This document shows, piece by piece, positions 26,820 through 46,638 of a stretch of 64,000 nt of DNA; position 1 is the stretch's first letter; each line of letters begins with the position of its first letter. A program made the position numbers and the translations under genes. Source of the stretch: an uncultured Rhodocyclaceae bacterium (GTDB lineage Bacteria; Pseudomonadota; Gammaproteobacteria; Burkholderiales; Rhodocyclaceae); the NCBI GenBank assembly GCA_964602565.1, contig CAZRRI010000004.1, positions 4,668 to 68,667 on the forward strand, written 5' to 3'. The notes below the pieces were generated by a model. It was given only the letters and a program-made list of their open reading frames with translations. It was not told the DNA's origin and did no database searches.

Positions 26820-26830
26820 CGCAATGTTCC

Positions 26831-27172: not shown

Positions 27173-27205
27173 GGCCGCGGCGACACCGAACGAGATGGCG
27201 GAATC

Positions 27206-28595: not shown

Positions 28596-30296
28596 TTAGA
28601 GCGCCTTCACCTTGACGATCGGCCGCTGTTCGTTGTCGAACATATGGATGGCGCAGGCGATGCACGGATCGAAGGAATGCACCGTGCGCAGCACTTCCAG
28701 CGGCCGCTCGGGATCGGCGATCGGGTTGTTCATCAGCGACGACTCGTAGGGACCGATCTGGTCGTTGGCGTCGCGCGGGCCGGCGTTCCAAGTGCTCGGC
28801 ACCACCGCCTGGTAGTTCTTGATCTTGCCGTTCTCGATCACCACCCAGTGCGACAGCGTGCCGCGCGGCGCCTGGTGGAAGCCGACGCCCTTGATCTCGC
28901 CCTTCGGGAACGACGGCGGGTTGAACGTCGTCTGCTCCTTGCCGATGTTGTCGACCAGCTTCTGCCACTGATCCTTCAGCGTGTCCATCATCACCGCGCA
29001 GCGGATGGCGCGCGCCGCATGGCGGCCGATGGTCGATTGCAGCGCCGTCAGCGGCACGTCGTTGAGCTTGCCCACCGCCTTGAGCGTGCCGATCGCATGG
29101 TTGAGATACTTGACGTAACGCTTGTTGCCGGCGGCCACGCCGTTATGCACGTCGGCCAGCGGCCCCACTTCGCAGCGCTTGCCGTAGAAGGTCGGCGCCT
29201 TGACCCAGGAGTACTTGCCGTTTTCCTGGAAGTCGGTGTACTGCGGTTCGGTCTCGCCCTGCCAGGGATGCAGCGCCTTCTCGCCGGTGTACCACGCGTG
29301 CTTGGAACTCTCCTCGACGCCATCGCGGAAGTATTCGTCGTTGAATGTCGAGATCGGCTTGAAGGTCTTCAGATCGCCGCCGGCGATGTAGCCGCCGGGC
29401 AGGTCGAACACCGTGCCCTTGGTGTCCTGCGGGCAATCCGGCACGGTCAGGTAATTGGTGACGCCGCCGCCGTATTTCGTCCAGTCGAGATAGAACGCGC
29501 CGATCGCCGGCACGTCGGTCAGGTAGGTCGACTTGACGAACTGGTCGAGCTTGTCGATGAAACCCTTGACCAGCATCAGGCGCTCGATGTTGAGCACCGA
29601 GGGCGCGTCGTGGCTGACCGAATTCGACACGCCGCCGACCGCCACGTTCTGGATGTGCGGGCTCTTGCCGCCGAGGATGGCGACGATCTTGTTGGCCAGG
29701 TTCTGCACGTCGAGCGCCTGCATGTAATGGGCGACGGCGAGCAGATTGACGTCCGGCGGCAGCTTCATCGCCGGATGTCCCCAGAAGCCGCTGGCGAACG
29801 GCCCCAGCTGGCCGCTGCCGACGAAGGTCTTGAGGCGTTCCTGGACCGCCTTCATCTCGTGCGGGCCGTTGAGCGGCCAGTCGGAGAGCGACTCGGCCAG
29901 CTTCGCGGTGGTCACCGGGTCGGCCTTGAGCGCGGAGGTCACATCCACCCAATCCACCGCCGACAGGTGGTAGAAGTGCACGATATGGTCCTGGATCGCG
30001 TGCGCCGTCTGGATGATGTTGCGGATCAGCTGCGCATTGACCGGAATCTCCAGCTGCAGGGCGTTCTCCACCGCGCGCACCGACGTGATGGCGTGCACCG
30101 TGGTGCACACGCCGCAGAAGCGCTGCGTGTAGGACCAGGCCTCGCGCGGGTCGCGGCCCACCAGGATCTTCTCGATGCCGCGCCACATCTGGCCCGACGA
30201 CCAGGCCTTGGTGACTCGACCGTTATCGACTTCGACGTCGATGCGCAGGTGACCCTCGATGCGGGTGATGGGATCGACAGTGATGCGTTTTGCCAC
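28596..30296 (-). CDS. hybC: [NiFe] uptake hydrogenase large subunit (Hyb/group 1 type)
   Basis: RITVDPITRIEGH, RFCGVCTTVH and C-terminal DPCIACAIH followed by a 15-aa cleavable extension. I prefer the GTG start at 30296, preceded by AAGGAG, over the longer ORF start at 30344, which overlaps hybB. Confidence 0.9.
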   Translation of the reverse strand: MAKRITVDPITRIEGHLRIDVEVDNGRVTKAWSSGQMWRGIEKILVGRDPREAWSYTQRFCGVCTTVHAITSVRAVENALQLEIPVNAQLIRNIIQTAHAIQDHIVHFYHLSAVDWVDVTSALKADPVTTAKLAESLSDWPLNGPHEMKAVQERLKTFVGSGQLGPFASGFWGHPAMKLPPDVNLLAVAHYMQALDVQNLANKIVAILGGKSPHIQNVAVGGVSNSVSHDAPSVLNIERLMLVKGFIDKLDQFVKSTYLTDVPAIGAFYLDWTKYGGGVTNYLTVPDCPQDTKGTVFDLPGGYIAGGDLKTFKPISTFNDEYFRDGVEESSKHAWYTGEKALHPWQGETEPQYTDFQENGKYSWVKAPTFYGKRCEVGPLADVHNGVAAGNKRYVKYLNHAIGTLKAVGKLNDVPLTALQSTIGRHAARAIRCAVMMDTLKDQWQKLVDNIGKEQTTFNPPSFPKGEIKGVGFHQAPRGTLSHWVVIENGKIKNYQAVVPSTWNAGPRDANDQIGPYESSLMNNPIADPERPLEVLRTVHSFDPCIACAIHMFDNEQRPIVKVKAL

Positions 30297-30321
30297 GGAA
30301 GTCTCCTTTGCGTTGTCTGGT

Positions 30322-31497
30322 TCAGGCGGCGGCGTGCTCTTCACGCGGCAGCACCGGGAATTTCTTGATGATGAAGAGGTAAAGGGCGATCTCCGTCGCG
30401 ATCGTCGCCACCGTCATGATCAGTTCCGGCAGGGCCGGGAAGTAGCTGTAGCCCGGGCCGGGGTTGTAGGTGATCAGGAAGGCGTCGAATCGGTAGAGCG
30501 AGCCGGCGAGGAGCATGCTGACCGCGGCAAAGAGCAGGTGCCTGCCGTTCTCGCGCTTCACCGGGGACGCCAGCACGGCCAGCGGATAGGCGAACAGCGC
30601 GGTCTCGATCCAGAACATCAGGCTGCCGAGGTCGAGGGCGAACATCGCGCCGAGCTTGCCGGCGATCGCCAGGTAGGCGAAGCGGATCACCAGGAAGGCG
30701 GAGATCAGCCCCATGATGATCCTGCCCAGGCCGGAGAACAGATGCGTCTCCGGATGGCGCTTGAAGCCGGTGGTCAGGAGCGAGCCCTCGAAGATGACGA
30801 TGGCGAAGCCCATGGTGAAGGCCGACAGCACGGCCAGCAGCGGCTGGATGTGCAGGGTCTGCCAGAGCGGATGCACCTTGTAGCCCATGGCGATCAGGAA
30901 GCTGCCCAGCGAGGACTGGTGCATGGTCGGCAGCAGGATGCCGAGGGCGATGAAGAAGAACAGCATCTTGTCGAGCCGGCCGCGCCAGGCGTCCGCCTTC
31001 ATTTGCCACCCGGTCTGCCTGCGCAGCCACTCGAGCACCGTCGGCGAGAACTCGATCGCCAGCACGAGCACGTAGGTCGCCACGCAAAGGCCGACCTCCA
31101 GCATCACGGAATGCGTGTTCATCTGCCAGGGCAGGAACATGTTGTAGGCATTCCAGTAGCGCCCCATGTCCACGAACGCGCCGAGGGCCGCGAAGCCGTA
31201 GCCGAGCAGGCTGGTCGCCAGCGCGGGACGGATCAGCGGATGGTACTTGCCCTTGTTGAAGAGATAGACGGTCACCGCCAGCGCATAGCCGCCGCAGGCC
31301 AGCGCCGTGCCGACGACGATGTCGTAGACCACCCAGATCCCCCACGGATAGCCGCCGCTCAGGTTGGCGACGGTACCGATGCCGGTGACGAAACGTATCA
31401 CCAGGAATACCGCGCCGATCGCCGCGATGGCGAGCATGAGCAGGAAGAAGGGCGTGAACAGCGGCCGGTTGTCGAGCGCCTGATAACGGTGGTTCAT
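30322..31497 (-). CDS. hybB: Hydrogenase membrane anchor (HybB/NrfD-like polytopic subunit)
   Basis: Start at ATG 31497 (MNHRYQALDNRPLF), about 391 aa, roughly 10 TM helices. Positioned between hybA and hybC as in Hyd-2 operons. Confidence 0.8.
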   Translation of the reverse strand: MNHRYQALDNRPLFTPFFLLMLAIAAIGAVFLVIRFVTGIGTVANLSGGYPWGIWVVYDIVVGTALACGGYALAVTVYLFNKGKYHPLIRPALATSLLGYGFAALGAFVDMGRYWNAYNMFLPWQMNTHSVMLEVGLCVATYVLVLAIEFSPTVLEWLRRQTGWQMKADAWRGRLDKMLFFFIALGILLPTMHQSSLGSFLIAMGYKVHPLWQTLHIQPLLAVLSAFTMGFAIVIFEGSLLTTGFKRHPETHLFSGLGRIIMGLISAFLVIRFAYLAIAGKLGAMFALDLGSLMFWIETALFAYPLAVLASPVKRENGRHLLFAAVSMLLAGSLYRFDAFLITYNPGPGYSYFPALPELIMTVATIATEIALYLFIIKKFPVLPREEHAAA

Positions 31498-33640: not shown

Positions 33641-33745
33641 GGGAATGTTCCTCCTTGAATCCCTGCATGGTGGTTGTCAGTTCGTGTGGATGACAGGGCG
33701 CGTCGTCAGATGGACGGTTTCCGACCGAACGCTTGAGAAAGCCCG

Positions 33746-33761
33746 TGCAAGTTGGATGCCA
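33746..33761 (-). promoter_or_regulatory. Sigma-54 (-24/-12) promoter upstream of hybO
   Basis: The minus strand reads TGGCAT-CCAAC-TTGCA, against the consensus TGGCAC-N5-TTGCW. It lies about 105 nt upstream of the hybO start. A sigma-54 activator (hoxA) is encoded nearby. Confidence 0.55.
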
Positions 33762-33835
33762 CTGCGCCGCAGCATCGCCAAGCCCATGATCCGGCGATGA
33801 ATTACTAAGGGAAGGCAGCCGAAACAAATGACGAA

Positions 33836-33888
33836 GGTGGAATTTAACCTTCCATCTTTACACGCAGAATGGAAGGAGTTATTCCACC
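33836..33888 (-). terminator. Imperfect long hairpin overlapping the hoxJ stop codon
   Basis: GGTGGAAT-TTAA-CCTTCCAT pairs with ATGGAAGG-AGTT-ATTCCACC, with a 13-nt loop. A moderately T-rich tract follows on the minus strand. It could be a terminator or an activator binding site. Confidence 0.3.
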
Positions 33889-35252
33889 CGCTGCCCGGAT
33901 GGCCGCAACACCGGCAACACCAGGGTGAACACCGCGCCGCCGCCGGGCGCGTTCTCGACGCTCAAGGTGCCGCCATGCCGCTCGACGATGCCGTAGCTGA
34001 TGGCAAGCCCGAGACCGGTGCCCTTGCCGACGGGCTTGGTGGTGAAGAACGGATCGAAGATGCGGCCAAGATTCGCCGGCGCGATGCCGGGGCCATTGTC
34101 GGCGAAGCGGATGCGCACGACCTTGCCCGCGACTTCCGCCGACACCTCCAGGCGGCCGTCGGCCCGGCCGGTGGTGGCGTCGCAGGCGTTATGCACCAGG
34201 TTCATCATCACCTGTTGCAGTTGTCCGGCGGAACCATTGACCTTGATGGAAGCCGGCAACTTCATGGTCACGCCAAAACTGCCGGGCGCCACCTTGCTGA
34301 CCCAATGCACGGCCCGCTCGACCACCGGCACCAGGTCGATCGGCTCCGGCAGGTCGCGATCGACGGCGGAAAAGCGCTTCAGGCCGTCGACGATTTCGCG
34401 CGTGCGCTCCGCGCCCTCGGCCGTGCCCTCGATCAGCGACGGCAGGTCGGCCAGCAGGCGGTCGATGCCCAGTTCCTCGCGCAGCGCGTCGATGCGTTCC
34501 CACGATTCCTTGCGCCGCACGGCGCCGAGGTATTCGTTCAGGCGGGTCGAGTAGCGCTTGAGCGCCAGCACGTTGCCGAACACGAAGCTGATCGGGTTGT
34601 TCAACTCGTGCGCGACGCCGGCGACCAGCCGGCCGAGGGACGCCATCTTCTCGGAATGCAGGAGCTGCTGCTGGGTACGCTTCAGGTCTTCGTGCGTCAG
34701 CCGCAGCGCCTTGTAGGCGCGCTGCAACTCGCCCACCGGCCGCCCCGTGATGACCACGCCGAGCATCTTGCCCATGGCGCTGTAGCGCGGCGTGCAATTG
34801 AGCGACACGGGAATCGCGCTGCCGTCCGCCGCGCGCAGCTGCATCTCGCAGTCGTGCAGCGTTTCGCCGACATGGCCGGCAAAGAAATGTTGCGCCTGCT
34901 GGCGCGAGCCCTCGTCGGCGAACAGGTCGAAGATGCGCCTGCCCTTGAGCGTTCCCTCGTCCTGGCCGGTCAGCTGCTGCAAGGACTGATTGACGTCCTC
35001 GATCACGCCGGCGCGGTTGCAGACCAGCAGCACGTCCGACATGGACGTCAGCACGGAAACGATGAACTGCTGCGACTCCTCGAGCGCCGCGTTCTTGTCC
35101 TCGAGCGCCACTTCGTATTGCAGCAGGTCGCTATAGACCTCGTCCATCTTCTGGATCACGTCCAGCCAGACGTCCTCGCTGGCGCCCGCACGCGCCGCCG
35201 CCACCAGCTGCTCGATACCCTCCGGTTTGGTTTTCTCGTCGCCCGTCGTCAT
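33879..35252 (-). CDS. hoxJ: PAS histidine kinase of the H2-sensing system (HoxJ/HupT-like)
   Basis: Start at ATG 35252 (MTTGDEKTK). PAS region, H-box AGVAHELNNPISF and a HATPase domain (GTGLGLAISY). The assignment to H2 sensing rests on the neighbourhood. Confidence 0.7.
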   Translation of the reverse strand: MTTGDEKTKPEGIEQLVAAARAGASEDVWLDVIQKMDEVYSDLLQYEVALEDKNAALEESQQFIVSVLTSMSDVLLVCNRAGVIEDVNQSLQQLTGQDEGTLKGRRIFDLFADEGSRQQAQHFFAGHVGETLHDCEMQLRAADGSAIPVSLNCTPRYSAMGKMLGVVITGRPVGELQRAYKALRLTHEDLKRTQQQLLHSEKMASLGRLVAGVAHELNNPISFVFGNVLALKRYSTRLNEYLGAVRRKESWERIDALREELGIDRLLADLPSLIEGTAEGAERTREIVDGLKRFSAVDRDLPEPIDLVPVVERAVHWVSKVAPGSFGVTMKLPASIKVNGSAGQLQQVMMNLVHNACDATTGRADGRLEVSAEVAGKVVRIRFADNGPGIAPANLGRIFDPFFTTKPVGKGTGLGLAISYGIVERHGGTLSVENAPGGGAVFTLVLPVLRPSGQRVE

Positions 35253-35305
35253 GCGGCGATTGTGGCACCCATTCGCCGCATGCGCCAAATCCCCGCCGCT
35301 GCTGA

Positions 35306-36082
35306 CTACCGATCGATCATTCCTAAGGCAAACCCGGCCAGCAGACCTTCGCCGATCCACTGCCCGAGCAGCGACGCGACCCAGGCGGCATCGCAACCGT
35401 TCCGCGCCTCGACCGCGGCGCAGACATCGGCGAAGCTGCCGCCTTCGGCCAGCGTTCGCAGCGCGGTCGCTTCGTCCTCGGCCGCCGTGCGCCAGCGGAT
35501 TTCCAGGCCCGCGCACCAGACGATCATCGCATGGACGTGCCGTTGCGGCTCCTCGGTTTCGGCGTTCTCGTCGGCGTTCAGCGCATGCCAGAGGGCCTCG
35601 ATGCCCCACTCCAGCGCCAGCATCCGGAACGAGGGGCAGAGCGTGAAGCGCAACTCCGGCCATTGCTCCGGCGCGATGCCGGCCAGATCCTCGAAGCGGA
35701 GCGGCGTCGCATCAGCGGCGTCGAATGCGCCGCGCATCGCCCAGTCCAGGCGAGCGATGTCGAGCAGCGCGGGGTGCGGAACGCTGCCGGGGTTGTCGCC
35801 GATGAACTCCGCGAGTCGGTCGCCGAACCAGCGGATCGAGCGGAAGCGGGAGGGATGGGCGTTCAGGTAGGCAGCGGCGAGTTCGCGGAAGGCGTCGTCG
35901 CCGAGCGCACGGTAGAGCACCGGGTAATTGTCGGCCAGCGCTTCGCGCAGCCGGCTCCAGTAGGCGTTGACATAGACCTCCAGGTGCCCGCACACGTCGT
36001 CCCGGAGGCCGTCCGCCGCCGCGTCCGGGCTGCCCGTCACATGGTCCTGGAAACGCTGTTGCAGCTCGGCGAGCCTGTTCAT
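35306..36082 (-). CDS. DUF2063 protein (BufC-like partner of the MNIO enzyme)
   Basis: The ATG at 36082 overlaps the upstream stop (ATGA). MNRLAELQQRFQDHV...YVNAYWSRLREAL...YLNAHPSRFRSIRWFG is the DUF2063 pattern. Confidence 0.75.
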   Translation of the reverse strand: MNRLAELQQRFQDHVTGSPDAAADGLRDDVCGHLEVYVNAYWSRLREALADNYPVLYRALGDDAFRELAAAYLNAHPSRFRSIRWFGDRLAEFIGDNPGSVPHPALLDIARLDWAMRGAFDAADATPLRFEDLAGIAPEQWPELRFTLCPSFRMLALEWGIEALWHALNADENAETEEPQRHVHAMIVWCAGLEIRWRTAAEDEATALRTLAEGGSFADVCAAVEARNGCDAAWVASLLGQWIGEGLLAGFALGMIDR

Positions 36083-36969
36083 GCGCAGGCCGCCTCCCGC
36101 TCCGGCCGGCAGACCGCCGCGGCGATGCGCCGGACCTGATCGAGTTCGGCGACCAGATCGGCCAGCGGCGGGATGTGGTCGTCGCGCTCGATCATGGTCG
36201 GCGCCCAGCCGATGCGCCGCAGGGTGTGGGCGTAGAGATCCCATACCGGATCGACGATCGGGTGGTCGTGGGTGTCGATGATGTAGTCGCCGTGGTCCTC
36301 GTGGCCGGCGAGGTGGATCTGGCGCACCGCCGCGGCCGGCACGGCATCGATGTAGTCGCGCGGCGCGAAGCCGTGGTTCACGCTGCTGACATAGACGTTG
36401 TTGACGTCGAGCAGCAGTTCGCAGCCGCTGCGCTTCACCAGTTCGCCGACGAAGTCCCACTCCGTGAGTTCGTCGCGGTGGAAGCTCACGTAGGTCGAGG
36501 CGTTTTCCAGGACCAGCGGGCGGCCGAGGAAATCCTGCACCTGCCCGACCCGCGCGACGAGGTGGTCCAGCGCCTGCCGCGTGCAGGGCATGGGCAGCAG
36601 GTCGTGCATGTTCAGCGAACGCGTGCCGGTCCAGCAGATGTGGTCGGAAATCCAGGCCGGCTCGATCCGTTGCGCGAGCCCGCGGATCTTCGCCAGATAA
36701 TCCATGTCGAGCGGATCGCTGCTGCCGATCGACAACGAGACGCCGTGCATCACCATCGGGTAGTCGCGGCGGATGCGATCGAGGTAATACAGCGGCTTGC
36801 CGCCGTCGACCAGATAGTTCTCGGAAATGATCTCCAGCCAATCGACCCGCTGCGGTGCGTCGATGAAGCCCTGGTAGTGCGGAATCCGCAAGCCAAGGCC
36901 GAAGCCGTCGAGCGTGCCGTTCCTGGTCGCCGGGCGAGCCGGCGCAGGGAAACCCTTCGCGGAATTCAT
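36079..36969 (-). CDS. DUF692 / MNIO-family (MbnB-like) multinuclear non-heme iron oxidase (BufB-like)
   Basis: GLGLRIPHY...DWLEIISENYL...MHGVSLSIGS is the UPF0276/DUF692 TIM-barrel signature. Confidence 0.85.
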   Translation of the reverse strand: MNSAKGFPAPARPATRNGTLDGFGLGLRIPHYQGFIDAPQRVDWLEIISENYLVDGGKPLYYLDRIRRDYPMVMHGVSLSIGSSDPLDMDYLAKIRGLAQRIEPAWISDHICWTGTRSLNMHDLLPMPCTRQALDHLVARVGQVQDFLGRPLVLENASTYVSFHRDELTEWDFVGELVKRSGCELLLDVNNVYVSSVNHGFAPRDYIDAVPAAAVRQIHLAGHEDHGDYIIDTHDHPIVDPVWDLYAHTLRRIGWAPTMIERDDHIPPLADLVAELDQVRRIAAAVCRPEREAACA

Positions 36970-37005
36970 GTCGTGTCTCCCTGGCCGTCGTCGCGAGGAT
37001 TGAAA

Positions 37006-37266
37006 TTACATGCCCTTGACGGTGCCGCCGGCCGCCTTGCATTCCTTCTCGTTGGCCTTGGTGACCCAGCCCTGGCCCTTGCAGGCGTTCATGCCCTTGC
37101 AGTCGTTCTTCGCGCTCTTGCATTCCGATTTGCCCTTGCAGGCATTGGCGCCGACGCAATGCACAGCTTCTCCCGCCGCGTAAACAGGGGTAGTCGAAAT
37201 GGCGCCCATCGCGAAGATGGTGGCGGCGGCGGTGGCCAGGGCGATGCCGGAAGTCTTGGTCGTCAT
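37006..37266 (-). CDS. DUF2282 Cys-rich secreted precursor peptide (bufferin BufA1-like)
   Basis: 86 aa. Sec signal peptide ending VYAAGE. The core has six Cys in repeated C-K-G/S contexts (HCVGANACKGKSECKSAKNDCKGMNACKGQGW...KECKAAGG). SD AGGAGA. Confidence 0.8.
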   Translation of the reverse strand: MTTKTSGIALATAAATIFAMGAISTTPVYAAGEAVHCVGANACKGKSECKSAKNDCKGMNACKGQGWVTKANEKECKAAGGTVKGM

Positions 37267-37408
37267 GTTGAGTCTCCTGAGGTTGTAAAGGGGTGCCCGA
37301 TCGTTCCGGCGCCGGAGGTTTGCTGCTGCCCGACGCCGGTCAGGTACCGAATAGTCGTGCGTGCCGGAAATTTCTTACACGATTGCGCAGGAGGCGGTCG
37401 CTTCCCCA

Positions 37409-38017
37409 TCACTTGCCCAGCCACTGCGCCAACTGGTCGAAGAAGACCACGTAAAGCGCAATCGGCAGCGGCAGCCCCAGCAGCGTGCCCAGCAGGTAAT
37501 CGCGGAAGCGGATGCCCGACAGGGCCAGCGCGCCGTTCAGCGCCGGCAGGGTCTGAAACAGCATGCGCAGGGTCACCACGCTGCGTAGCGGCGCCGTGTC
37601 GAGCCGGCGGAATATCCGCAGCGCCAGCGGATTCTTTAGGCGGCGCAGCGCATCGCCGCCCAGCAGGCGAACCAACAGGAAGGTGACCACGCACGACACG
37701 CTGGCCGCCACGTAGGTGGCCAGCCCGCCGAGCGGTGCGCCGAACGCGTAGACCGCCGACGCCAGAAACACCCAGCCGGGAATCAGCAGCAGGTTGCCCA
37801 GCGAAAACAGCACGACGAAGAACAGCACCCCGCCCAACGGATGACCGGCGATGCTTCGCTGCAAGGTCGCCAGCTCGAACTGCTCGCCCAGGCCGCTGAG
37901 CCGGAAGGCAAGCAGCAGCACCAGCACGAACGCCACCACCACCAGCAGGCGTCCGTAGGTTTTGATCCAGACTTGGGCCGTGGCAAACTGGCTCACGACA
38001 ACATACCTCCCTTGCAT
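37409..38017 (-). CDS. TVP38/TMEM64 (DedA-related) family membrane protein
   Basis: Polytopic. Motif LGNLLLIPGWVFLASAVYAFG...RLLGGD. Start is ambiguous among GTG 38041, ATG 38017 and GTG 37996, the last preceded by GGGAGG. Confidence 0.7.
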   Translation of the reverse strand: MQGRYVVVSQFATAQVWIKTYGRLLVVVAFVLVLLLAFRLSGLGEQFELATLQRSIAGHPLGGVLFFVVLFSLGNLLLIPGWVFLASAVYAFGAPLGGLATYVAASVSCVVTFLLVRLLGGDALRRLKNPLALRIFRRLDTAPLRSVVTLRMLFQTLPALNGALALSGIRFRDYLLGTLLGLPLPIALYVVFFDQLAQWLGK

Positions 38018-38095
38018 TGCGCCCCTCGGTGGGACGGGCACGCGAATTAGTCGGAGACAAGGAGGGAAAGCTTACAACGGTGGGCGCCGTAGCCT

Positions 38096-38171
38096 GGCGT
38101 ATCGCCGCGGCTGACTTTCGAAAGGACTGGCCCGGCGTATCGCCACGGCTGACTTTCGGTAGGAATGGGCC
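38096..38171 (+). repeat. 38-bp tandem repeat (2 full copies plus a degenerate third) in the divergent intergenic region
   Basis: Unit 1 at 38096-38133 is GGCGTATCGCCGCGGCTGACTTTCGAAAGGACTGGCCC. Unit 2 at 38134-38171 is GGCGTATCGCCACGGCTGACTTTCGGTAGGAATGGGCC. A roughly 50%-identical third unit follows. Confidence 0.85.
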
Positions 38172-38472
38172 GACGTATTCAAACGGTACTGTAAGGAAAT
38201 ACCTGGGTCTCCGACCAATCGCTCAGCGGGCCAACACCTGCATGACCGCGAACCCACCACGAGAAAACTCACCATGAACAGGACCCTGACCGCTGCTTCC
38301 CTCGGCGGCGCCCTCGCCGACGCCTACCCGACGCACGGCGTCCGGGCGGCCGTGCTGCTCTATCTCGTCGCCCGGGGGCCGGGTACGACGTCGCTGGATC
38401 ATTTGCTTGCATGGCGGCTGCATGCTTTGTGAAATAATGGCCGCTCCGCCGGCCTGCCCGTCGTCGCCCGCC

Positions 38473-39060
38473 ATGACCGCCGCCTTCGATGCCGAGACCC
38501 TGAGTTCGATCCGCCAGGACATGCTGCGCTTCGCGCGCTTGCAGTTGCGCGACGATGCGCTGGCCGAGGACGCGGTGCAGGACGCCATCGCCAGCGCGCT
38601 GGCCGGCGGCCGCGAGTTCGCCGGCCGCTCGGCGCTGAAGACCTGGGTGTTCGCCATCCTGCGCAACAAGATCGTCGACGCCATCCGCGAGCGCAGCCGC
38701 TCGATCAACATCTCGGCGCTCTCGGCCGACGAAGAGGCGATGGACGAAACCTTCGACAGCCTGTTCAAGCCGAACGCGCACTGGCAGCCGGAGACACGCC
38801 CGGCCGACTGGGGCAACCCCGAGGCGGCGCTCCACCAGGAGCAGTTCTGGGCGGTGTTCGAGGCCTGCCTGGAGCACCTGCCGGCCAACACGGCGCGCGT
38901 CTTCATGATGCGCGAGTTCCTCGAATTCGATACCGACGAGGTGTGCGCGGAGCTGTCGATCAGCGCCGGCAACTGCCACGTCATCCTCCACCGTGCACGC
39001 AACGGCCTGCGCCGCTGCCTGGAACAGAACTGGTTCGCCAGCGGAGGCGCAGCATGCTGA
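38473..39060 (+). CDS. ECF-type sigma-70 family RNA polymerase sigma factor
   Basis: Start taken at ATG 38473 (MTAAFDAE). Region 2 (DAVQDAIASAL...TWVFAILRNKIVD) and region 4 (ARVFMMREFLEFDTDEVCAELSISAGNCHVILHRAR). Confidence 0.85.
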   Translation: MTAAFDAETLSSIRQDMLRFARLQLRDDALAEDAVQDAIASALAGGREFAGRSALKTWVFAILRNKIVDAIRERSRSINISALSADEEAMDETFDSLFKPNAHWQPETRPADWGNPEAALHQEQFWAVFEACLEHLPANTARVFMMREFLEFDTDEVCAELSISAGNCHVILHRARNGLRRCLEQNWFASGGAAC

Positions 39061-39245
39061 CCTGCAAGGAAGTCACCCACCTGCTCTCGGAAGGGCAGGA
39101 CCGCAAGCTGACGGTGGGCGAGCGGGCGCGCCTGGAGATGCATCTGCTGATTTGTGCCGGGTGTTCCAACTTCAGCAAGCAGATGGACTTTCTGCGCAGC
39201 GCCTGCCGGCGCTACGTCGACACTCGATCATCCGGAAAAAAATAG
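39054..39245 (+). CDS. Small zf-HC2 anti-sigma factor
   Basis: The ATG at 39054 overlaps the sigma stop. 63 aa. H-x3-C-x2-C motif (MHLLICAGC). No TM segment. Confidence 0.65.
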   Translation: MLTCKEVTHLLSEGQDRKLTVGERARLEMHLLICAGCSNFSKQMDFLRSACRRYVDTRSSGKK

Positions 39246-39263
39246 CGGGACGGCCGGCCGCGA

Positions 39264-40715
39264 TCAGTGCACGGTACAGACCATGCAGGGATCGAAGGAG
39301 CGGACGACGTGCTGGACGGCGACCGGCGCCCTGCCATCGGCGCCGAGCGGAATGCCGGCCAGCGCGCGTTCGAGCGCGCCGGGCTTGCCCGCGCTGTCGC
39401 GCGGCGAGAAATTCCACGTGGTGGGCGCGATGATCTGGTAGTTGTGGATGCGGCCACGCCGGATGGACAGCCAATGGCCGAGTGAGCCGCGCGCGGCTTC
39501 GACGAGGCCGGCGCTCTCGGCCTCGGCGGGCAATTCGCCCTCGACGGAGAAGGCTTCTCCCGGACGCAGGGCCGCGGCCCAGGTTTCCATGGCGGGAAGC
39601 AGGCGCGCGACTTCGAGCAGGCGCGCGACGACGCGCGCTTCGACGCCACCGCCATCGCGGGCAACGAGGTCGCGGGCAAGCGGATGACCGGCGACGAGCT
39701 GCCGCGCCAGCGCGCCGGTCTCGACCACCTCGCCGCCCAGGCGTGGCGCCTTGCACCAGGTGTAGGCGGATTCCTTGTCGGCGATGGGCAGCGTCGAGCC
39801 GCGCGCGGGTTCGAGCGGCGCCCCGGCGTCGGCATACCAGGCGTGGCTGACGTCCTCGGCGATCCGCGCCGGGTCGAGCAGCGCCGGGCCGCCGGCCCAG
39901 ACGCCCGCCGGCCACCAGCGGCCGCCGCCTGTCCCCTCCTGCTCGTAGGCGCCGTAGCTCATGAAGGCGACGCCGGCATGGCCGAGCGCCGAAAGGTTCA
40001 GCGCCCGCGAGGCGCGCAGGAACAGGCCGAAGTCGCTCCCGCCATGCCGGTCGGCCCAGGCCGCCAGTTCGTCCGCCGAGGCGATGGCCGCGACGGCTTC
40101 GAGCACGTCACCGAAGGTCGTGCGTTCGAGAAAGCGGCGGAAGTCGCGCAACACGCGCAGCAGGCGCAGGCGCTCGGAGGCATTGACCGGATGCGTCGAG
40201 CCACCCGGCTGCAATGTCAGGGTATGCGGCCACTTGCCGGCCAAAAGGCCCATGGCGCGCATCCAGCCGGCACGCGCGGGCAGGAAATCGGCGGCCGCGC
40301 TGCCGGTCACGGCCTTGAAGCGCGCCGAGGTGGCGTGCCACCACGGCTGACTTTCGTAGCAGTCGCGCGCGAAGTCGGGCATGAAGAACAGATAGAAATG
40401 GGTGACGTGGTCGGCAAGGTTCTCGACCGCGTGGATCAGGTTCGCCGCCAGCCTGCCGTTGTCCGGCGGCTTGATGCCCATGGCGGCGGCCAGCGCCCGT
40501 GACGCGGCGGCCGACTGCGACACCGAGCAGATGCCGCAGATGCGCGGCACGAAGACCAGCGCATCCATGGGCGCCTTGCCTTGCAGGATCTGCTCGAAGC
40601 CCCGATAGAGCGAGCTTTTCACGCGCGCCTCGCGCACGCGCCCGTCGGCGATATCGAGGATCACTTCGAGATCGCCCTCGACACGGTTGAACGGTCCCAC
40701 CACCAATCGGCTCAT
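39264..40715 (-). CDS. hoxC: Regulatory (H2-sensing) [NiFe] hydrogenase large subunit HoxC/HupV
   Basis: VGPFNRVEGDLEV and RICGICSVSQ. The protein ends exactly at DPCMVCTVH with no C-terminal extension, typical of sensor hydrogenases. Start at ATG 40715; the alternative GTG at 40757 lies inside the duplicated junction. Confidence 0.85.
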   Translation of the reverse strand: MSRLVVGPFNRVEGDLEVILDIADGRVREARVKSSLYRGFEQILQGKAPMDALVFVPRICGICSVSQSAAASRALAAAMGIKPPDNGRLAANLIHAVENLADHVTHFYLFFMPDFARDCYESQPWWHATSARFKAVTGSAAADFLPARAGWMRAMGLLAGKWPHTLTLQPGGSTHPVNASERLRLLRVLRDFRRFLERTTFGDVLEAVAAIASADELAAWADRHGGSDFGLFLRASRALNLSALGHAGVAFMSYGAYEQEGTGGGRWWPAGVWAGGPALLDPARIAEDVSHAWYADAGAPLEPARGSTLPIADKESAYTWCKAPRLGGEVVETGALARQLVAGHPLARDLVARDGGGVEARVVARLLEVARLLPAMETWAAALRPGEAFSVEGELPAEAESAGLVEAARGSLGHWLSIRRGRIHNYQIIAPTTWNFSPRDSAGKPGALERALAGIPLGADGRAPVAVQHVVRSFDPCMVCTVH

Positions 40716-40809
40716 GGCTTCTTCATGGAACGCGGCCAGTACGTCCACAACAACCACGGCACGCTAACGCTTCCAATCGGCTCATGGCTTCTTCATGGAA
40801 CGCGGCCAG
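40703..40809. repeat. 37-bp perfect direct repeat (period 70 bp) duplicating the hoxB-stop/hoxC-start junction
   Basis: CCAATCGGCTCATGGCTTCTTCATGGAACGCGGCCAG occurs at 40703-40739 and again at 40773-40809. Confidence 0.9.
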
Positions 40810-41771
40810 GGGATGATGTGATCGGAGGTGGAATTCCGGCGCACCCGCGCCGGCGTCGCGGACTTCGACAGGGCCGCCAGGGCGACGAACCAGGCCTTCG
40901 GCATGTCCAGCGGCAGCCCGATCGGAATGCCGGCGACCTTCGGCGTGCTGTTGAACAGGTGGCCGGGTTCCTCGAAACCGGGCTCGGTGCAGCTGATGCA
41001 GGCATAACCGCCATCGGTACAGGAACCGCCGCCGTTCCAGGGCCGCAGGTTGCAGTCGGCATGCGCCTGCGTGCCCTTGCAGCCGAGATGCTCCATCAGG
41101 CAGCCCTGCTCGCCGCCCTTCTGGGCGCTGGCCTTGAATTCGTAGAACTCGTTGCGCTTGCAGCCGTGATGAACGAGCACGTCGGCGTAGAAGCGCGGTC
41201 GCGCCAGTTCATCGAGCGCTTCCCGACCCATCTCGTTGCGTGCGAGCGACAGCAGCGTCTCGGTCACCCAGTCCGGGTGCGTCGGACAACCGGCGACGTT
41301 GACGACCGGAAGTCCCGATGGCGAGCAAAATCCGCTGCCGAGCAGGCCGCCCGGGTTGGCGCCGTCGTACTGCAGACCGCAGGCATCGGTGGGATTGCTG
41401 CCCGCCGCGGTGATGCCGCCAAAGGCCGCGCACGAGCCGATCGCCACGACATGCCGGGCACGCGCCGCCAGCAGCCTCACCCACTCGATCATCGGCCTTT
41501 CGGTACCGGCCATGACATGGAAGCGGCCGCTGCCGCCCGGCCCGAGCAGCATGGAACCCTCGACGCAGAGCACGTCGAATGGCAGGCTGCCATCGGCGCA
41601 GGCATCGAGGATGGCAAGCGATTCGTCGGCGCTGGCCTCGGACACGCTCGGATGCCAGACGATCTCGATGCCCGCGTCCGCCAGCGTGGCGAACAGCGCG
41701 GACCATTCGCTGCCCAGCCAGGATAGCGTGCAACCGCCGCAACCGCCCGATTGCAACCATATCAGCTTCAT
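40782..41771 (-). CDS. hoxB: Regulatory [NiFe] hydrogenase small subunit HoxB/HupU (no Tat signal)
   Basis: The ATG at 41771 gives MKLIWLQSGGCGGCTLS. There is no twin-arginine leader. Fe-S Cys ligands are present. Confidence 0.85.
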   Translation of the reverse strand: MKLIWLQSGGCGGCTLSWLGSEWSALFATLADAGIEIVWHPSVSEASADESLAILDACADGSLPFDVLCVEGSMLLGPGGSGRFHVMAGTERPMIEWVRLLAARARHVVAIGSCAAFGGITAAGSNPTDACGLQYDGANPGGLLGSGFCSPSGLPVVNVAGCPTHPDWVTETLLSLARNEMGREALDELARPRFYADVLVHHGCKRNEFYEFKASAQKGGEQGCLMEHLGCKGTQAHADCNLRPWNGGGSCTDGGYACISCTEPGFEEPGHLFNSTPKVAGIPIGLPLDMPKAWFVALAALSKSATPARVRRNSTSDHIIPWPRSMKKP

Positions 41772-41824
41772 GCGCCCTCCACCTCCCGTCACCTCCGCCC
41801 TTGGGGCGGCCCGGCGGATGGCGC

Positions 41825-43261
41825 TCATTCGGAACGCTCCAGCCCGTAGCGGGCAAGCTTGGCGCGCAGACCGACGCGCGACAGGCCTAGCTCCTCGGCG
41901 GCGCGGCTCTTGTTGCCGCGCAAACGCGCCATCGTTTCCCGAATGACGTCGGCCTCGATGCGCTCGACGCGATCCTTCAGCGTGCCATTGGCAACCACGT
42001 CCACGGCAGCGTGGTTGCCGTTCACTACGCGAACCGCCGGCGAAAGCAGCTCCACACCCAGGACGTCGTCATCCGCCAGCGCCAGCATGCGCATGATTTC
42101 GTTCTGCAACTCCCGCACATTGCCCGGCCAGGCATAGCGTTCCAGACAACGCAGCGCCTCCGGCGCGAGCAACGCGCCTTGCCTGGCGGCCTGCGTCCGG
42201 CGCAGGTCCAGCAACTCGGCGGCGATCAGGGCGATGTCCTGCGGACGCTCGCGCAGCGGCGGCAGGCGCAGCGTCATGCCCGCCAGGCGGTAATAGAGAT
42301 CCTCGCGAAAGCGGCCGCTGCGCACGTCGGCTTCCAGGTCGCGGTTGGTCGCGGCAATCACGCGCACGTCGATCGAGACCGGCCGGGGGCTGCCGAGCGG
42401 ACGGATCTCGCCTTCCTGTAGCGCCCGCAGCAGTTTGACCTGGAAGGCCGGCGAAGTCTCGCCGATCTCGTCGAGGAAGATCGTGCCGCCATCGGCCTGC
42501 TGGAAGAGCCCGATGCGATCCTCGAAGGCGCCCGTGTAGGCGCCGCGCTTGTGGCCGAACAGTTCGGATTCGAGCAGGGTATCCGGCAGCGCGCCGCAGT
42601 TCTCGACGATGAATGCGCCGTCGGCGCGGCGGCTCGCGTAATGCACCGCGCGCGCCAGCAGTTCCTTGCCGGTTCCGGATTCACCGGTGATCAGGATGGA
42701 CATTTCGTGCGCCGCGACGCGCTCGGCGATGCGGCACACGTCGTTGAGCGGACTGTCGGCCGATCGCGCCAGCCGGCTGAAGGCGGCTTCCGCACGCGCG
42801 CGGCCCTGTTTCTCCTTGACGCGCGTCTTGAGCACTTCGGGACTGGAACGCAACTCCAGCGTCAGCCGCTGGTGGGCCTGCTGCAAGCGCCAGAGTTCGG
42901 CGGCGCCGCGCAGCGTCAGCAACAACTGCTCGGGATGCCACGGCTTGAGGATGTATTGCCAGATGCCGGCTTCGTTGATGCCGGCGATGATGTCTTCGGC
43001 CTCGGTAAAGCCCGAGATGATGATGCGCACCGTGTCGGGCCATTGCACGCACACCTGCTTGAGGAACTCGACGCCCGACGTCCCCGGCATGCGCTGGTCG
43101 CACAGGAGGATATGCACGAACTCGCGTGCCATCAGCGCCGCCGCTTCGTCGGCCGAGCCCGCGGTCAGGACGGCAAACTCCTCGTCCAGCGTGCGTCGCA
43201 GCGCCTCCTGCGAACGCACCTCGTCGTCTACGACGAGAACCACTGCCTTGGCAACCGTCAC
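41825..43261 (-). CDS. hoxA: Sigma-54-dependent response regulator HoxA/HupR (NtrC family)
   Basis: Receiver domain (VLVVDDE...LLCDQRMPG). AAA+ domain with GESGTGKE and GAFTGA-like GAYTGA. C-terminal Fis-type HTH. Confidence 0.85.
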   Translation of the reverse strand: MTVAKAVVLVVDDEVRSQEALRRTLDEEFAVLTAGSADEAAALMAREFVHILLCDQRMPGTSGVEFLKQVCVQWPDTVRIIISGFTEAEDIIAGINEAGIWQYILKPWHPEQLLLTLRGAAELWRLQQAHQRLTLELRSSPEVLKTRVKEKQGRARAEAAFSRLARSADSPLNDVCRIAERVAAHEMSILITGESGTGKELLARAVHYASRRADGAFIVENCGALPDTLLESELFGHKRGAYTGAFEDRIGLFQQADGGTIFLDEIGETSPAFQVKLLRALQEGEIRPLGSPRPVSIDVRVIAATNRDLEADVRSGRFREDLYYRLAGMTLRLPPLRERPQDIALIAAELLDLRRTQAARQGALLAPEALRCLERYAWPGNVRELQNEIMRMLALADDDVLGVELLSPAVRVVNGNHAAVDVVANGTLKDRVERIEADVIRETMARLRGNKSRAAEELGLSRVGLRAKLARYGLERSE

Positions 43262-43455: not shown

Positions 43456-45345
43456 ATGACCGACGCACGGTCCAGCCCGTTGATCGACATTCTCGACCGC
43501 CACCGCCACGACGGCACCCGGCTGATGCAGATCCTGCGCGAGGCGCAGGAGGCATTGGGTTGGCTGTCGCCCGAGACGATCACCGCGATCGCGGCCGACA
43601 TCGGCTGGCCGCGCGCCAAGGTGGAAGGCACGGCCGGCTTCTACAGCTTCTTCCACACGCGGCCGATGGGCGAGTACCGCGTGCTCTGGAGCGACAACAT
43701 CACCGATCGCATGCTCGGCAACCTGGACCTCATGCAGGCGATGTGCCAGAAGCTCTGGCTGGAACCGGGCCGCGTCTCGGAGGATGGCCTGGTCAGTGTC
43801 GACACCACATCCTGCACGGGCATGTGCGACCAGGGCCCGGCGGTGCTGGTCAATTACCGCGCCATCCCGCGCATGACGCCCGCCCGCGTCGAGCACATGG
43901 TCGAACTCATCCGCACGCGCACGCCGCTCGCCGAATGGCCGGTGGAGTGGTTCGCCATCGAGGACAACATCCGCCGCGCCGACGTTCTGCTTGGCAACGA
44001 CATGATGCCCGGCGATGCGCTCAAGGTCTGCCTGGCGCGCGGCGCCGATCAGCCCAGGATCGAGACCGCCTCCAACGAGCGCTCCTTCCGCGAAGCCATC
44101 CACACCGGCGATGCCGGGCCGGGCGCGACGCTGGACGAGATCAAGAGATCCGGACTGCGCGGTCGCGGCGGCGCCGGATTCACCACCGGCCTCAAGTGGG
44201 AAGCCTGCCGCAACGCGCGCGGAACGGGGGAAAACGCGGCGCACTATGTCATCTGCAATGCCGACGAGGGCGAGCCCGGTACCTTCAAGGACCGCGTGCT
44301 GCTGACGCGGCAGGCGAATCTCGTCTTCGAGGGCATGACGGTCGCCGCCTACGTCATCGGCGCCGGCAAGGGCTACCTCTATCTGCGCGGCGAATACCGC
44401 TACCTGCTGGAGCCGCTGGAGTCAGTCCTGGCGACACGCCGGCGCGCGGGGCTGCTGGGCAGGAACATCCTCGACGTTCCGGGCTTCGACTTCGACATCG
44501 AGATCCACCTCGGTGCCGGCGCCTATGTCTGCGGCGAGGAATCAGCGCTGATCGAATCGCTCGAAGGCAAGCGCGGCGTGCCGCGCAACCGGCCGCCGTA
44601 TCCCGTCACCAACGGCTTCCTCAACCAACCGACCGTGGTGAACAACGTCGAGACCTTCGCCGCCGCGGCGCTGGTCGCGCTCAACGGCGGCGACTGGTAC
44701 CGGAGCCTGGGCACGCCCCGCTCCACCGGCACCAAGATCCTGTCGGTCTCCGGCGATTGCGAACGGCCGGGCATCTACGAATACCCCTTCGGTGTCACGG
44801 TGCGCCAGGTGCTCGCCGACTGCGGGGCCAGGGATTCGCAAGCCGTGCAGATTTCCGGCCCGTCGGGCATCTGTATCGGCCCGGACGAATTCGACCGCCG
44901 CATCGCCTTCGAGGACATCCCGACGGCCGGCGCTTTCATGATCTTCGACATCCGGCGCGACATCTTCGAAGTCGTGCGCAATTTCGTTCACTTCTTCGCG
45001 CACGAATCCTGCGGCTTCTGCACGCCCTGCCGCGTCGGCACGACGCTGCTCAAGAACCTGATGGACAAGATCGCGGCCGGCCACGGCACGCGCTACGACA
45101 TCAACGAGATCTACAACCTGAACCGCGTGCTGCAATCGGCCGCTCACTGCGGCCTCGGCCACACGGCCTGCAATCCGCTCGTGCATACGCTGGAGAAGTT
45201 CCGCCCGGCCTACGAGCGCCGCCTGAAGTCGCTCGAATTCCAGCCCGCCTTCGACCTCGACGCGGCACTATCGGAAGCGCGCCAGATGACCGGGCGCGAC
45301 GACGCCGCGGCCCACCTGGCGACCGAACCGGAGACCTCGCGATGA
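43456..45345 (+). CDS. hoxF: NAD-reducing hydrogenase diaphorase subunit HoxF (NuoE+NuoF-like)
   Basis: 629 aa. NuoE-like N-terminus. GLRGRGGAGFTTGLKWE (FMN/NADH site). ESCGFCTPCRVG [4Fe-4S]. Confidence 0.9.
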   Translation: MTDARSSPLIDILDRHRHDGTRLMQILREAQEALGWLSPETITAIAADIGWPRAKVEGTAGFYSFFHTRPMGEYRVLWSDNITDRMLGNLDLMQAMCQKLWLEPGRVSEDGLVSVDTTSCTGMCDQGPAVLVNYRAIPRMTPARVEHMVELIRTRTPLAEWPVEWFAIEDNIRRADVLLGNDMMPGDALKVCLARGADQPRIETASNERSFREAIHTGDAGPGATLDEIKRSGLRGRGGAGFTTGLKWEACRNARGTGENAAHYVICNADEGEPGTFKDRVLLTRQANLVFEGMTVAAYVIGAGKGYLYLRGEYRYLLEPLESVLATRRRAGLLGRNILDVPGFDFDIEIHLGAGAYVCGEESALIESLEGKRGVPRNRPPYPVTNGFLNQPTVVNNVETFAAAALVALNGGDWYRSLGTPRSTGTKILSVSGDCERPGIYEYPFGVTVRQVLADCGARDSQAVQISGPSGICIGPDEFDRRIAFEDIPTAGAFMIFDIRRDIFEVVRNFVHFFAHESCGFCTPCRVGTTLLKNLMDKIAAGHGTRYDINEIYNLNRVLQSAAHCGLGHTACNPLVHTLEKFRPAYERRLKSLEFQPAFDLDAALSEARQMTGRDDAAAHLATEPETSR

Positions 45346-46076
45346 GCGAACAAACCTTCAACCTCGACGGCCAGGAAATTCCCTTCGCGGCCGGCCAAAG
45401 CGTCATGCAGGCAGCACTGTCGGCGGGCGTGTTCATCCCGCATCTGTGTTATCACCCCGAATTCCGGCCGCATGGCAGTTGCAAGCTGTGCACGGTCAAG
45501 ATCAACGGCCGGCCGGCGACATCCTGCACCACGCCGGCCTGCGCGGGCATGGAAGTCGAGAGCAACACGCAGGAAGTCCTCGACAAGCGGCGGACGCTCT
45601 TGCAGATGCTGCTGGTCGAAGGCAACCATTTCTGTCCGAGCTGCGAGAAGAGCGGCCACTGCAAGTTGCAGGCGCTCGGCTACGAACTCGGCGTGATGAC
45701 GCCGCACTTCAACCACTTCTATCCGGACCGTCCGGTCGACGCGTCGCATCCCGACGTCCTGCTCGACTTCAACCGCTGCATCCTCTGCGAGCTGTGCATC
45801 CGCGCCAGCGCCGAAGTGGATGGCAAAAACGTCTTCGCGCTGTCGGGCCGCGGCATCGGGAAACACCTGATCGTCAATGCCGAATCCGGCAGGCTCGGCG
45901 ACACGGACTTCGCGCTCACCGACAAGGCGGCGCAGGTCTGCCCCGTGGGCGTCATTCTGCCCAAGCGCAAGGGCTTCGCCGTGCCGATCGGCCAGCGCCG
46001 CTTCGACGCCGAGCCGATTTCCGCCCATGTCGACGAATTCAAGCCGGTAACGCCCGGGGCCGGAGGCAGGCCATGA
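45342..46076 (+). CDS. hoxU: NAD-reducing hydrogenase diaphorase Fe-S subunit HoxU (NuoG N-terminal-like)
   Basis: The ATG at 45342 overlaps the hoxF stop. [2Fe-2S] CKLCTV...C, HFCPSCEKSGHC and CILCELCIR. Confidence 0.85.
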   Translation: MSEQTFNLDGQEIPFAAGQSVMQAALSAGVFIPHLCYHPEFRPHGSCKLCTVKINGRPATSCTTPACAGMEVESNTQEVLDKRRTLLQMLLVEGNHFCPSCEKSGHCKLQALGYELGVMTPHFNHFYPDRPVDASHPDVLLDFNRCILCELCIRASAEVDGKNVFALSGRGIGKHLIVNAESGRLGDTDFALTDKAAQVCPVGVILPKRKGFAVPIGQRRFDAEPISAHVDEFKPVTPGAGGRP

Positions 46077-46627: not shown

Positions 46628-46638
46628 CAAAGACCGCC

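Follow-up and report, generated by a model that had tools for sequence, protein, structure and literature searches.

The buf2 operon of Caulobacter vibrioides, which lacks a bufD (DoxX) gene, encodes a bufferin in which each of the four central Cys residues shows a mass change of -4.03 Da, assigned to conversion to a thiooxazole, while a disulfide joins the first Cys to the last; the product protects against copper (PMC11626156). The gig cluster of Cupriavidus metallidurans is induced by copper and gold (PMC10304878). In Haemophilus, the sigma factor RpoE2 and its anti-sigma factor HrsE, a 67-residue cytoplasmic protein that responds to HOCl and H2O2, control a DoxX-containing cluster (PMC7907618). 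According to a published survey, sigma factor genes occur in Buf1 clusters and not in Buf2 clusters (PMC12452194). Here we describe a bufferin locus from an uncultured Rhodocyclaceae bacterium, contained in a stretch of 64,000 nt (contig CAZRRI010000004.1) that is referred to in its entirety as the window; the region under study, at positions 35306-39245, is an island lying between the regulatory hydrogenase genes hoxC and hoxJ. The observations are very probably best explained jointly by a Buf2 cluster, bufA2-bufB2-bufC2, by stress promoters controlled by an extracytoplasmic function (ECF) sigma factor with its zinc-binding anti-sigma factor (ZAS), and by a variable island that splits hoxC from hoxJ. 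The core cluster itself is an ordinary addition to the known Buf2 class under a known sigmaE/MseR-type pair.

The precursor matches the NCBIfam model NF050166 ('BufA2 family periplasmic bufferin-type metallophore') over residues 8-83, with a score of 90.6 bits against a cut-off of 60. A Pfam scan at E ≤ 0.01 matched no family to it, DUF2282 (PF10048) included; as a positive control, the BufA1 protein of a related locus, L004, scored 82 bits with PF10048. An earlier annotation made from the letters alone, hereafter the sequence-only reading, had placed the precursor in DUF2282. A Buf1/DUF2282 identity was rejected on the missing PF10048 match and on the six Cys residues, against the four conserved in Buf1, although the other two family placements of that reading, DUF692 for BufB and DUF2063 for BufC, were upheld. 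Its description of a signal-bearing core with six Cys, the four central ones in C-K-G or C-K-S contexts, agrees with what is read from the 86-residue precursor. Cys37, 43, 49, 56, 62 and 76 are each kept in 70/70 aligned relatives, 59 of these 70 having exactly six Cys. In residues 1-30 a basic start (K4) precedes a hydrophobic stretch, and V-Y-A stands before A31; the hydropathy peak is N-terminal, and cleavage of the predicted Sec signal peptide probably follows VYA, at residue 30. By homology to Caulobacter Buf2, C43, C49, C56 and C62 are the expected modification sites and hence putative thiooxazole positions. On the same homology, BufB with BufC would act in the cytoplasm to oxidise these four residues into 5-thiooxazoles, the peptide would be exported by the Sec pathway, a C37-C76 disulfide would form and the mature small protein would chelate copper in the periplasm.

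The gene following the precursor encodes a multinuclear non-heme iron oxidase (MNIO, formerly DUF692), as had been proposed: the protein scores 369 bits with PF05114 and 379 bits with NF050167 (MNIO_BufB), for which the cut-off is 310, and its closest solved structures are 3BWW, TglH and MbnB. BufC scores 72.4 bits with DUF2063 (cut-off 27.2), and its gene begins with the ATG of the ATGA at which it overlaps the bufB stop, an overlap that the sequence-only reading had pointed out. Membership of this trio of precursor, MNIO and DUF2063 partner in the bufferin class of peptides made by ribosomes and modified after translation (RiPPs) is supported at equivalog level. Sequence searches of the PDB with BufC and with the ZAS protein gave no match. 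The bufA2-bufB-bufC core is found in nearly all of 80 genome loci encoding relatives of BufB, the exceptions being a few that ended at a contig edge or gave no BufA2 match. No DoxX gene follows bufC in the window, where hoxJ comes next, and the sole doxX sequence there is a 3' fragment at 38319-38411. This lack had been counted as a departure from the bufferin archetype. However, among the 76 related loci with more than 600 bp downstream of bufC no conserved gene family, DoxX or other, follows it, and the Caulobacter operon is also without one, so the missing DoxX was rejected as a novelty. In five loci, of which at least three are from Roseateles, the gene after bufC is Redoxin-like.

The ORFs (open reading frames) named in the sequence-only reading were all recovered in place and on the expected strands; that reading had missed a relic ORF at 38274-38432 (plus strand), with its doxX fragment, and three ECF-type promoter motifs. 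The elements of the island are as follows.

35306-36082, minus strand: bufC2, DUF2063 partner of the MNIO, 258 residues (PF09836, 72.4 bits).
36079-36969, minus strand: bufB2, MNIO, 296 residues (PF05114 and NF050167, scores as above).
37006-37266, minus strand: bufA2, Buf_6/12Cys bufferin precursor, 86 residues (NF050166, 90.6 bits).
37351-37379, minus strand: ECF (sigmaE-type) promoter motif before bufA2, TGTAAG-N16-CGACTAT.
37409-38017, minus strand: membrane protein of the TVP38/TMEM64 family (VTT domain, DedA superfamily; PF09335, 57.3 bits against a cut-off of 33.9).
38047-38076, minus strand: ECF (sigmaE-type) promoter motif before the TVP38 gene, TGTAAG-N17-CGACTAA.
38092-38167, no strand: two tandem 38-nt copies of a dispersed repeat (family D1, clade-specific), between the divergent promoters.
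38190-38218, plus strand: ECF (sigmaE-type) promoter motif before the relic ORF and the ECF and ZAS genes.
38274-38432, plus strand: relic ORF of 52 codons, the start of bufA1 fused to the end of doxX.
38473-39060, plus strand: ECF sigma factor of the TIGR02943/PRK12532 family, 195 residues (Sigma70_r2 and r4_2 domains).
39054-39245, plus strand: cytoplasmic ZAS, 63 residues (zf-HC2, 36.9 bits; NF052368, 80.7 bits).

The promoter motif, TGTAAG-N16/17-CG(A/T)C(T/C)A(A/T), was obtained by comparison of upstream regions, the pattern having first been derived from the window, L004 and L007. Three matches are present in the 64-kb window, all of them within the island region, where 0.01 would be expected, and 1.32 Mb of BufB-related loci contain 35 matches against 2.35 expected. 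A motif on the coding strand lies no more than 260 bp upstream of bufA2 in 21/76 related loci. Four further loci (L170, L171, L172 and L177) were fetched via other proteins and are independent of the motif derivation; of their 14 matches, 12 are positioned 48-112 bp before bufA1, bufA2, the TVP38 gene or a gene for an AhpC-like protein. The motif and its spacing equal the Neisseria sigmaE consensus, GTMAGBWTT-N12/13-CGTCTAAH (PMC2893595).

The AhpC/Redoxin-family gene just mentioned encodes 179 residues and belongs to the island of these same four relatives (L170 1153-1692, L171 4420-4959, L172 1241-1780, L177 7146-7685); it is absent from the window. A sigmaE-type motif is found 59 bp before it in L170, L172 and L177. 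For L171 the closest motif, 585 bp upstream, does not establish such a link.

The sigma factor that would read these promoters is encoded alongside them. It scores 283 bits with NF009184 (cut-off 276) and 263 bits with TIGR02943, and the ZAS gene, directly downstream, overlaps its gene by 7 nt. The ZAS protein exceeds the cut-off of 50 for NF052368 ('antisigmaE') and lacks a membrane segment, its highest 19-residue hydropathy being 0.72, so that domains and hydropathy bear out the divergent ECF sigma and zf-HC2 anti-sigma pair, the latter free of transmembrane segments, that the sequence-only reading had described. Cys4, His30, Cys34 and Cys37 of the protein (an H-x3-C-x2-C motif plus an extra N-terminal Cys) occupy the positions seen in MseR (PMC2893595). 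Since it matches both MseR and HrsE, the membrane-less anti-sigma factor is of a known type; the placing of Buf2, TVP38 and AhpC-like genes under a sigmaE/MseR-type promoter has not previously been described. We propose that the ECF sigma factor would act at all three promoters, namely those of bufA2, of the TVP38 gene and of the sigma operon, the last of which (38190-38218) would confer autoregulation, and that the ZAS would keep the sigma factor inactive, its release coming with oxidative or thiol-reactive stress.

A 23-nt element near the promoters, AAAGTCAGCCGYGGCGRYACGCC, was considered as a regulator binding site and rejected, being a genome-wide dispersed repeat. Ten copies with no more than three mismatches are present in the window, where none is expected, at 21809-21831, 25334-25356, 28563-28585, 38096-38118, 38134-38156, 40332-40354, 48049-48071, 55761-55783, 58315-58337 and 61190-61212. 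Some are coding, in hoxC (...ESQPWWHA...), at the hoxH 3' end and in a HypX-like gene. The 16-nt core of the element is confined to close Rhodocyclaceae relatives (20/181 sequences), with 1-9 copies per 10 kb, and the element could be akin to repetitive extragenic palindromic (REP) sequences or to DNA uptake signals. A scan of the entire 64-kb window against Rfam gave zero matches.

As the sequence-only reading had it, a TVP38/DedA-related gene precedes the precursor gene in the same orientation; its product has a VTT domain and four or more hydrophobic segments, and the gene lies 142 bp upstream of bufA2. Its start is ambiguous between 38017 and an in-frame GTG at 37996, which has the ribosome-binding site GGGAGG 9 nt upstream and from which the protein would be 195 residues long, as are the closest homologues, with a range of 195-202 residues among homologues. 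The island includes the TVP38 gene in the window, L004, L170, L171, L172 and L177, and an ECF-type promoter precedes this gene in the window, L004, L166, L170, L172 and L177. Its closeness to bufA2 and this shared promoter, together with its location inside the buf1 operon of L171, between doxX and the ECF gene, and its divergent placement next to bufA2 in L007, L008 and L012, might suggest that the protein is dedicated to the bufferin pathway, as a stand-in for DoxX, as an aid to export or in a protective role, in what would amount to a four-gene variant of the cluster. We regard this as unlikely. A TVP38 gene lies within 10 kb in just 5/80 BufB-related loci; the L166 gene keeps the promoter with no buf genes nearby; and orthologues 79-88% identical to the window protein (tblastn) have, in three other genomes, YhhN, urease or PhoX genes as neighbours and none of the buf genes near. 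Nor does the gene replace DoxX, with which it coexists in L170, L171, L172 and L177, while DoxX is itself dispensable for Buf1 modification and function (PMC11626156); and given the predicted Sec signal on the precursor, no dedicated exporter is needed. The two bufferin survey papers with their supplements, and the wider literature searched, contain no link of TVP38, VTT or DedA proteins to bufferins or to an ECF sigma factor. Because the ECF-type promoter is shared and orthologues nevertheless occur elsewhere without buf genes, we take TVP38 for a co-regulated membrane protein of the stress response, a member of the regulon and not a core biosynthetic partner.

The relic ORF accounts for the presence of the sigma factor genes at this site. 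Its residues 1-15, MNRTLTAASLGGALA, resemble the signal-peptide starts of BufA1 in relatives (MNKTLTAASLACALG), and residues 16-49 are 76-88% identical to the DoxX C-terminus of L170, L171 and L172: the ORF is an in-frame fusion, doxX-derived from codon 16 onwards, with the protein match extending to about codon 49. DNA alignments agree, the segment 38189-38319 aligning to the bufA1 promoter and 5' end and the segment 38317-38416 to the doxX 3' end, with the junction at about 38319. All that survives of bufA1 in the window is a 15-codon remnant, and the ribosome-binding site of the relic ORF is degraded, reading GAGAAA instead of AAGGAG. In L170, L171 and L172 the operon is intact and comprises bufA1 (PF10048), MNIO, DUF2063, DoxX, ECF sigma and a ZAS of 63-64 residues. 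The relic alignments and these intact relatives point to a loss of about 2 kb in the window lineage, from bufA1 codon 15 to near the end of doxX; judged from these alignments, the relic ORF is the scar of an approximately 2-kb deletion of bufA1, bufB1, bufC1 and doxX, and it is because the intervening Buf1 and doxX genes were deleted that the ECF pair now stands beside the Buf2 cluster. The motif at 38190-38218 is near-identical to the bufA1 promoter of L004 and aligns with the region upstream of bufA1 in L172, L170 and L177. This old bufA1 promoter would now drive the relic ORF and the ECF-ZAS pair.

In L004 a gene of the C92 family (YaeF/YiiX-like permuted papain; 8405-9541, minus strand) precedes the ECF-ZAS pair, at the position occupied by doxX in other relatives. 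It has a sigmaE-type promoter motif upstream and may be another regulon member.

The deletion of the Buf1 and doxX genes, the degraded ribosome-binding site, the loss of the AhpC-like gene from the window and the loss of the whole buf2 operon by a sister lineage, L170, show that the island is shrinking, and one might ask whether the window cluster is a decaying remnant that now yields no functional product. This is very unlikely: bufA2, bufB, bufC and the TVP38, ECF and ZAS genes are full-length and score above their family cut-offs, the six Cys of BufA2 and the promoter motifs are intact, and the window sequence recurs at 99.8-100% identity in three independent metagenome contigs. One of these, L001 (4.9 kb, 99.96% identical), reaches from the hoxC end to the hoxJ start, which shows that assembly did not create the arrangement.

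The bufferin island fills a gap of 4,011 bp between hoxJ and hoxC. On the minus strand the order of transcription is hoxA, hoxB, hoxC, TVP38, bufA2, bufB2, bufC2, hoxJ, while the ECF and anti-sigma genes are on the plus strand and convergent with hoxC, the ZAS and hoxC stop codons being 18 bp apart. The flanking genes are these.

33879-35252, minus strand: hoxJ, H2-sensor histidine kinase, 457 residues (PAS, HisKA and HATPase_c domains).
39264-40757, minus strand: hoxC, large subunit of the regulatory [NiFe] hydrogenase (PF00374; likely start ATG 40715).
40782-41828, minus strand: hoxB, small subunit of the regulatory hydrogenase (Pfam domains).
41825-43261, minus strand: hoxA, sigma-54-dependent response regulator (Pfam domains).

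That the unit separates hoxJ from hoxABC, genes otherwise contiguous, was a claim of the sequence-only reading, which had also suggested comparing synteny in relatives; both the separation and the expected adjacency elsewhere were confirmed. In C. necator pHG1 and Acidovorax pEP1, hoxA-hoxB-hoxC-hoxJ are contiguous, and the gene order in the window matches. In three related Rhodocyclaceae lineages (L173/L174, L176 and L179/L180) the hoxC stop and hoxJ start overlap as TGATG; HoxJ is 74-86% identical in these three uninterrupted lineages. Homologues 84-88% identical to the window HoxJ carry the name HupT/HoxJ in their sources. L174 shares its assembly with L004, the genome with the closest BufB (88%); here hoxABCJ are uninterrupted and the bufferin island is next to alaS.

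The contents of the hoxC-hoxJ junction differ among other relatives. In L170, whose HoxJ is 92% identical along the portion that the contig covers, the junction holds the Buf1-DoxX-ECF-ZAS operon and genes for a SEC-C protein, TVP38 and the AhpC-like protein. L172 carries Buf1 as well as Buf2 next to hoxC, and its ZAS-hoxC junction is that of the window. In L177/L178 (HoxJ 87% identical) bufA2-bufB-bufC are directly upstream of hoxJ, and the island further includes toxin-antitoxin, RhuM and FokI-like genes as well as a Buf1 operon. L175 (HoxJ 86% identical) has HipA, PIN, DUF6880 and Fic genes at the junction (3974-10001) and no bufferin genes. L170 also supplies the reciprocal of the deletion in the window (1019-1067, 902-1013): bufA2-bufB-bufC are cleanly gone and Buf1-DoxX-ECF-ZAS is kept, a mutated bufA2 promoter (GCAAG...CGAGTA) abutting sequence that in the window follows bufC, just upstream of hoxJ. 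Because island cargo differs in this way, the junction is a variable, recombination-prone site, and it seems to be a hot spot for insertions. The insertion is, by comparison of these sequences, derived and common to a Rhodocyclaceae subclade. On this comparison, the bufferin island entered the hoxC-hoxJ junction within that subclade; the ancestral island also held a bufA1-bufB1-bufC1-doxX-ECF-ZAS operon and the AhpC-like gene, and the window lineage lost the Buf1 and doxX genes. Signs of mobile-element insertion at the borders were sought and rejected: no flanking direct or inverted repeats were found, there are no tRNA or insertion sequence (IS) genes among the ORFs, and the GC content of the island is within the local range, with no shift in base composition.

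A metagenome scan with HoxJ gave two useful loci, L084 and L085, a search of protein databases providing better relatives. In L085, about 4 kb with a second histidine-kinase-like gene lies between hoxC and hoxJ.

The window is rich in hydrogenase genes, at 15966-30344 and 43456-48120. A membrane-bound hydrogenase of hyb type (small subunit, FeS protein, NrfD-like protein, large subunit and HycI protease) is accompanied by an NAD-reducing hydrogenase of HoxFUYH type, HypB, HypD, NikR and a NicO transporter; the HypX-like gene is a formyltransferase/enoyl-CoA-hydratase fusion, and a PAS-GGDEF-EAL protein is encoded between NikR and NicO.

Such surroundings, with NicO, NikR, HypB, HypD, the HypX-like protein and three [NiFe] hydrogenases, invite the view that the peptide is a metallophore for nickel or another metal than copper, serving hydrogenase maturation or H2 sensing and placed between hoxC and hoxJ for that reason. 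The tight junctions, with gaps of 18 bp on the hoxC side and 53 bp on the hoxJ side, and the presence of a bufferin island at the same hox site in several relatives (L170, L172, L177/L178) could be cited in its favour, but the view is highly improbable. No orthologue of hoxJ or hoxC lies within 10 kb of the buf genes in any of the 80 BufB-relative loci, and an unrelated [NiFe] hydrogenase lies near buf in a single case, L032. The closest relative (the L004/L174 assembly) has its island by alaS, with hoxABCJ intact on another contig, and in L171 the Buf1-TVP38-ECF-ZAS operon is found in a setting without hox genes. In L175 the same junction is taken up by toxin-antitoxin and Fic genes. The promoters belong to the sigmaE stress type, without NikR-type or sigma-54/HoxA-type features, and characterised Buf1 and Buf2 respond to copper and protect against it (PMC11626156). 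Islands without hox genes, unrelated cargo at the site and stress-type promoters thus argue against a functional tie to nickel or H2, and a copper-chelating Buf2 peptide remains the preferred reading.

The insertion may nevertheless affect hoxJ, which no longer overlaps hoxC and now lies 53 bp downstream of bufC, with the convergent ECF-ZAS pair between it and hoxABC. A scan of the bufC-hoxJ gap revealed no terminator-like site and a scan of 33700-39500 for sigma-70-like promoters found none; these scans make read-through from the buf promoters into hoxJ possible and nothing stronger. A bolder proposal is that H2 sensing has been rewired, hoxJ being transcribed mainly from the TVP38 and bufA2 stress promoters and a single ZAS/ECF switch governing two bufferin classes, TVP38 and a peroxiredoxin. 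We consider this distinctly unlikely. If it were true, the level of HoxJ, and with it the H2 dependence of hydrogenase expression via HoxA, would be conditional on oxidative or copper stress, and the Rhodocyclaceae would possess a single envelope-protection regulon embracing two bufferin classes, TVP38 and a peroxiredoxin.

Several points weigh against the reading of the locus as an ECF/ZAS-controlled Buf2 cluster in a hox-splitting island. The motif count in the window is partly circular, since the pattern was derived partly from window sites, and the independent support for the motif accordingly consists of its positions in other loci and of the Neisseria consensus. The 21 bufA2 loci with a motif do not represent 21 independent events, as related genomes share ancestry. 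Neisseria MseR gave no response to the oxidants tested (Hopman et al.), and the inducing signal of the MseR-type class is not settled. A single-sequence AlphaFold2 model of BufC has a mean predicted local distance difference test score (pLDDT) of 41, which leaves the C-terminal domain expected in the family, one resembling a RiPP recognition element (RRE), putative here. Finally, recognition of the promoters by the sigma factor, modification of the peptide, its metal specificity and co-transcription of hoxJ with the buf genes are all points that we infer.

As one more member of a family already thousands strong, the core cluster matters little alone. Of some value is the sigmaE/MseR-type promoter on Buf2 clusters in many Betaproteobacteria, which extends bufferin regulation beyond SigF/NrsF and qualifies the published statement that sigma factors do not accompany Buf2 clusters. 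TVP38 and the AhpC-like peroxiredoxin become candidate regulon members, offering a testable lead on a poorly understood membrane family. The hoxC-hoxJ junction, with recurrent gain and loss of islands and reciprocal Buf1 and Buf2 deletions in sister lineages, is a small case of reductive island evolution. It also carries a caution, in that function is not to be read from adjacency to hydrogenase genes.

Comparison with known systems places each part of the locus. Like the window cluster, the buf2 operon of Caulobacter vibrioides (CCNA_02999-03001) consists of three genes with no DoxX, has a precursor with a Sec signal and six Cys, and is under ECF control; homology with it leads one to expect, here too, copper chelation, a single disulfide and thiooxazoles at the four central Cys (PMC11626156). 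The regulators differ, Caulobacter using SigF with the membrane anti-sigma factor NrsF, encoded near buf1, whereas the window has a TIGR02943-type ECF sigma factor and a 63-residue cytoplasmic ZAS beside the cluster, as well as a co-regulated TVP38 gene.

The regulatory pair finds its counterparts in NMB2140-NMB2145 of Neisseria meningitidis and RpoE2/HrsE of Haemophilus influenzae, where the gene after the ECF gene likewise overlaps it and encodes a small cytoplasmic ZAS with Cys4-His30-Cys34-Cys37. These sigmaE systems are autoregulated, with a consensus, GTAAGG..-N12/13-CGTCTAA, that is matched by the window motif. On one reading, the Neisseria and Haemophilus (Hvf) architecture may be likened to the operon that is intact in L170, L171 and L172 and left as a scar in the window (PMC2893595, PMC7907618). 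Their precursor, however, is of the EGKCG (oxazolin) type, neither Buf1 nor Buf2, and their regulon includes msrAB, whereas that of the window would consist of bufA2-bufB-bufC and TVP38, to which relatives add the AhpC-like gene. A further difference is that in the window the genes between promoter and ECF gene have been deleted.

In Cupriavidus metallidurans, gigPABT with rpoQ-rsqA represents a Buf1 cluster (DUF2282, MNIO, DUF2063 and DoxX) next to ECF and anti-sigma genes (PMC10304878). The Buf1 operon lost from the window had this gig-like gene content, while the precursor surviving there is Buf2. RsqA is predicted to be membrane-bound, in contrast to the cytoplasmic anti-sigma factor of the window, and gig and rpoQ are divergent, whereas the relatives described here have one operon. 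As for the hydrogenase genes, hoxA-hoxB-hoxC-hoxJ of Cupriavidus necator H16 pHG1 are orthologous and in the same order and orientation, with HoxJ 55% identical, and HoxC, which in the window ends ...FDPCMVCTVH, is without a C-terminal extension, as on pHG1. The difference lies in the junction: hoxC and hoxJ are adjacent on pHG1, while in the window the pair is 4,011 bp apart and the overlap is gone.

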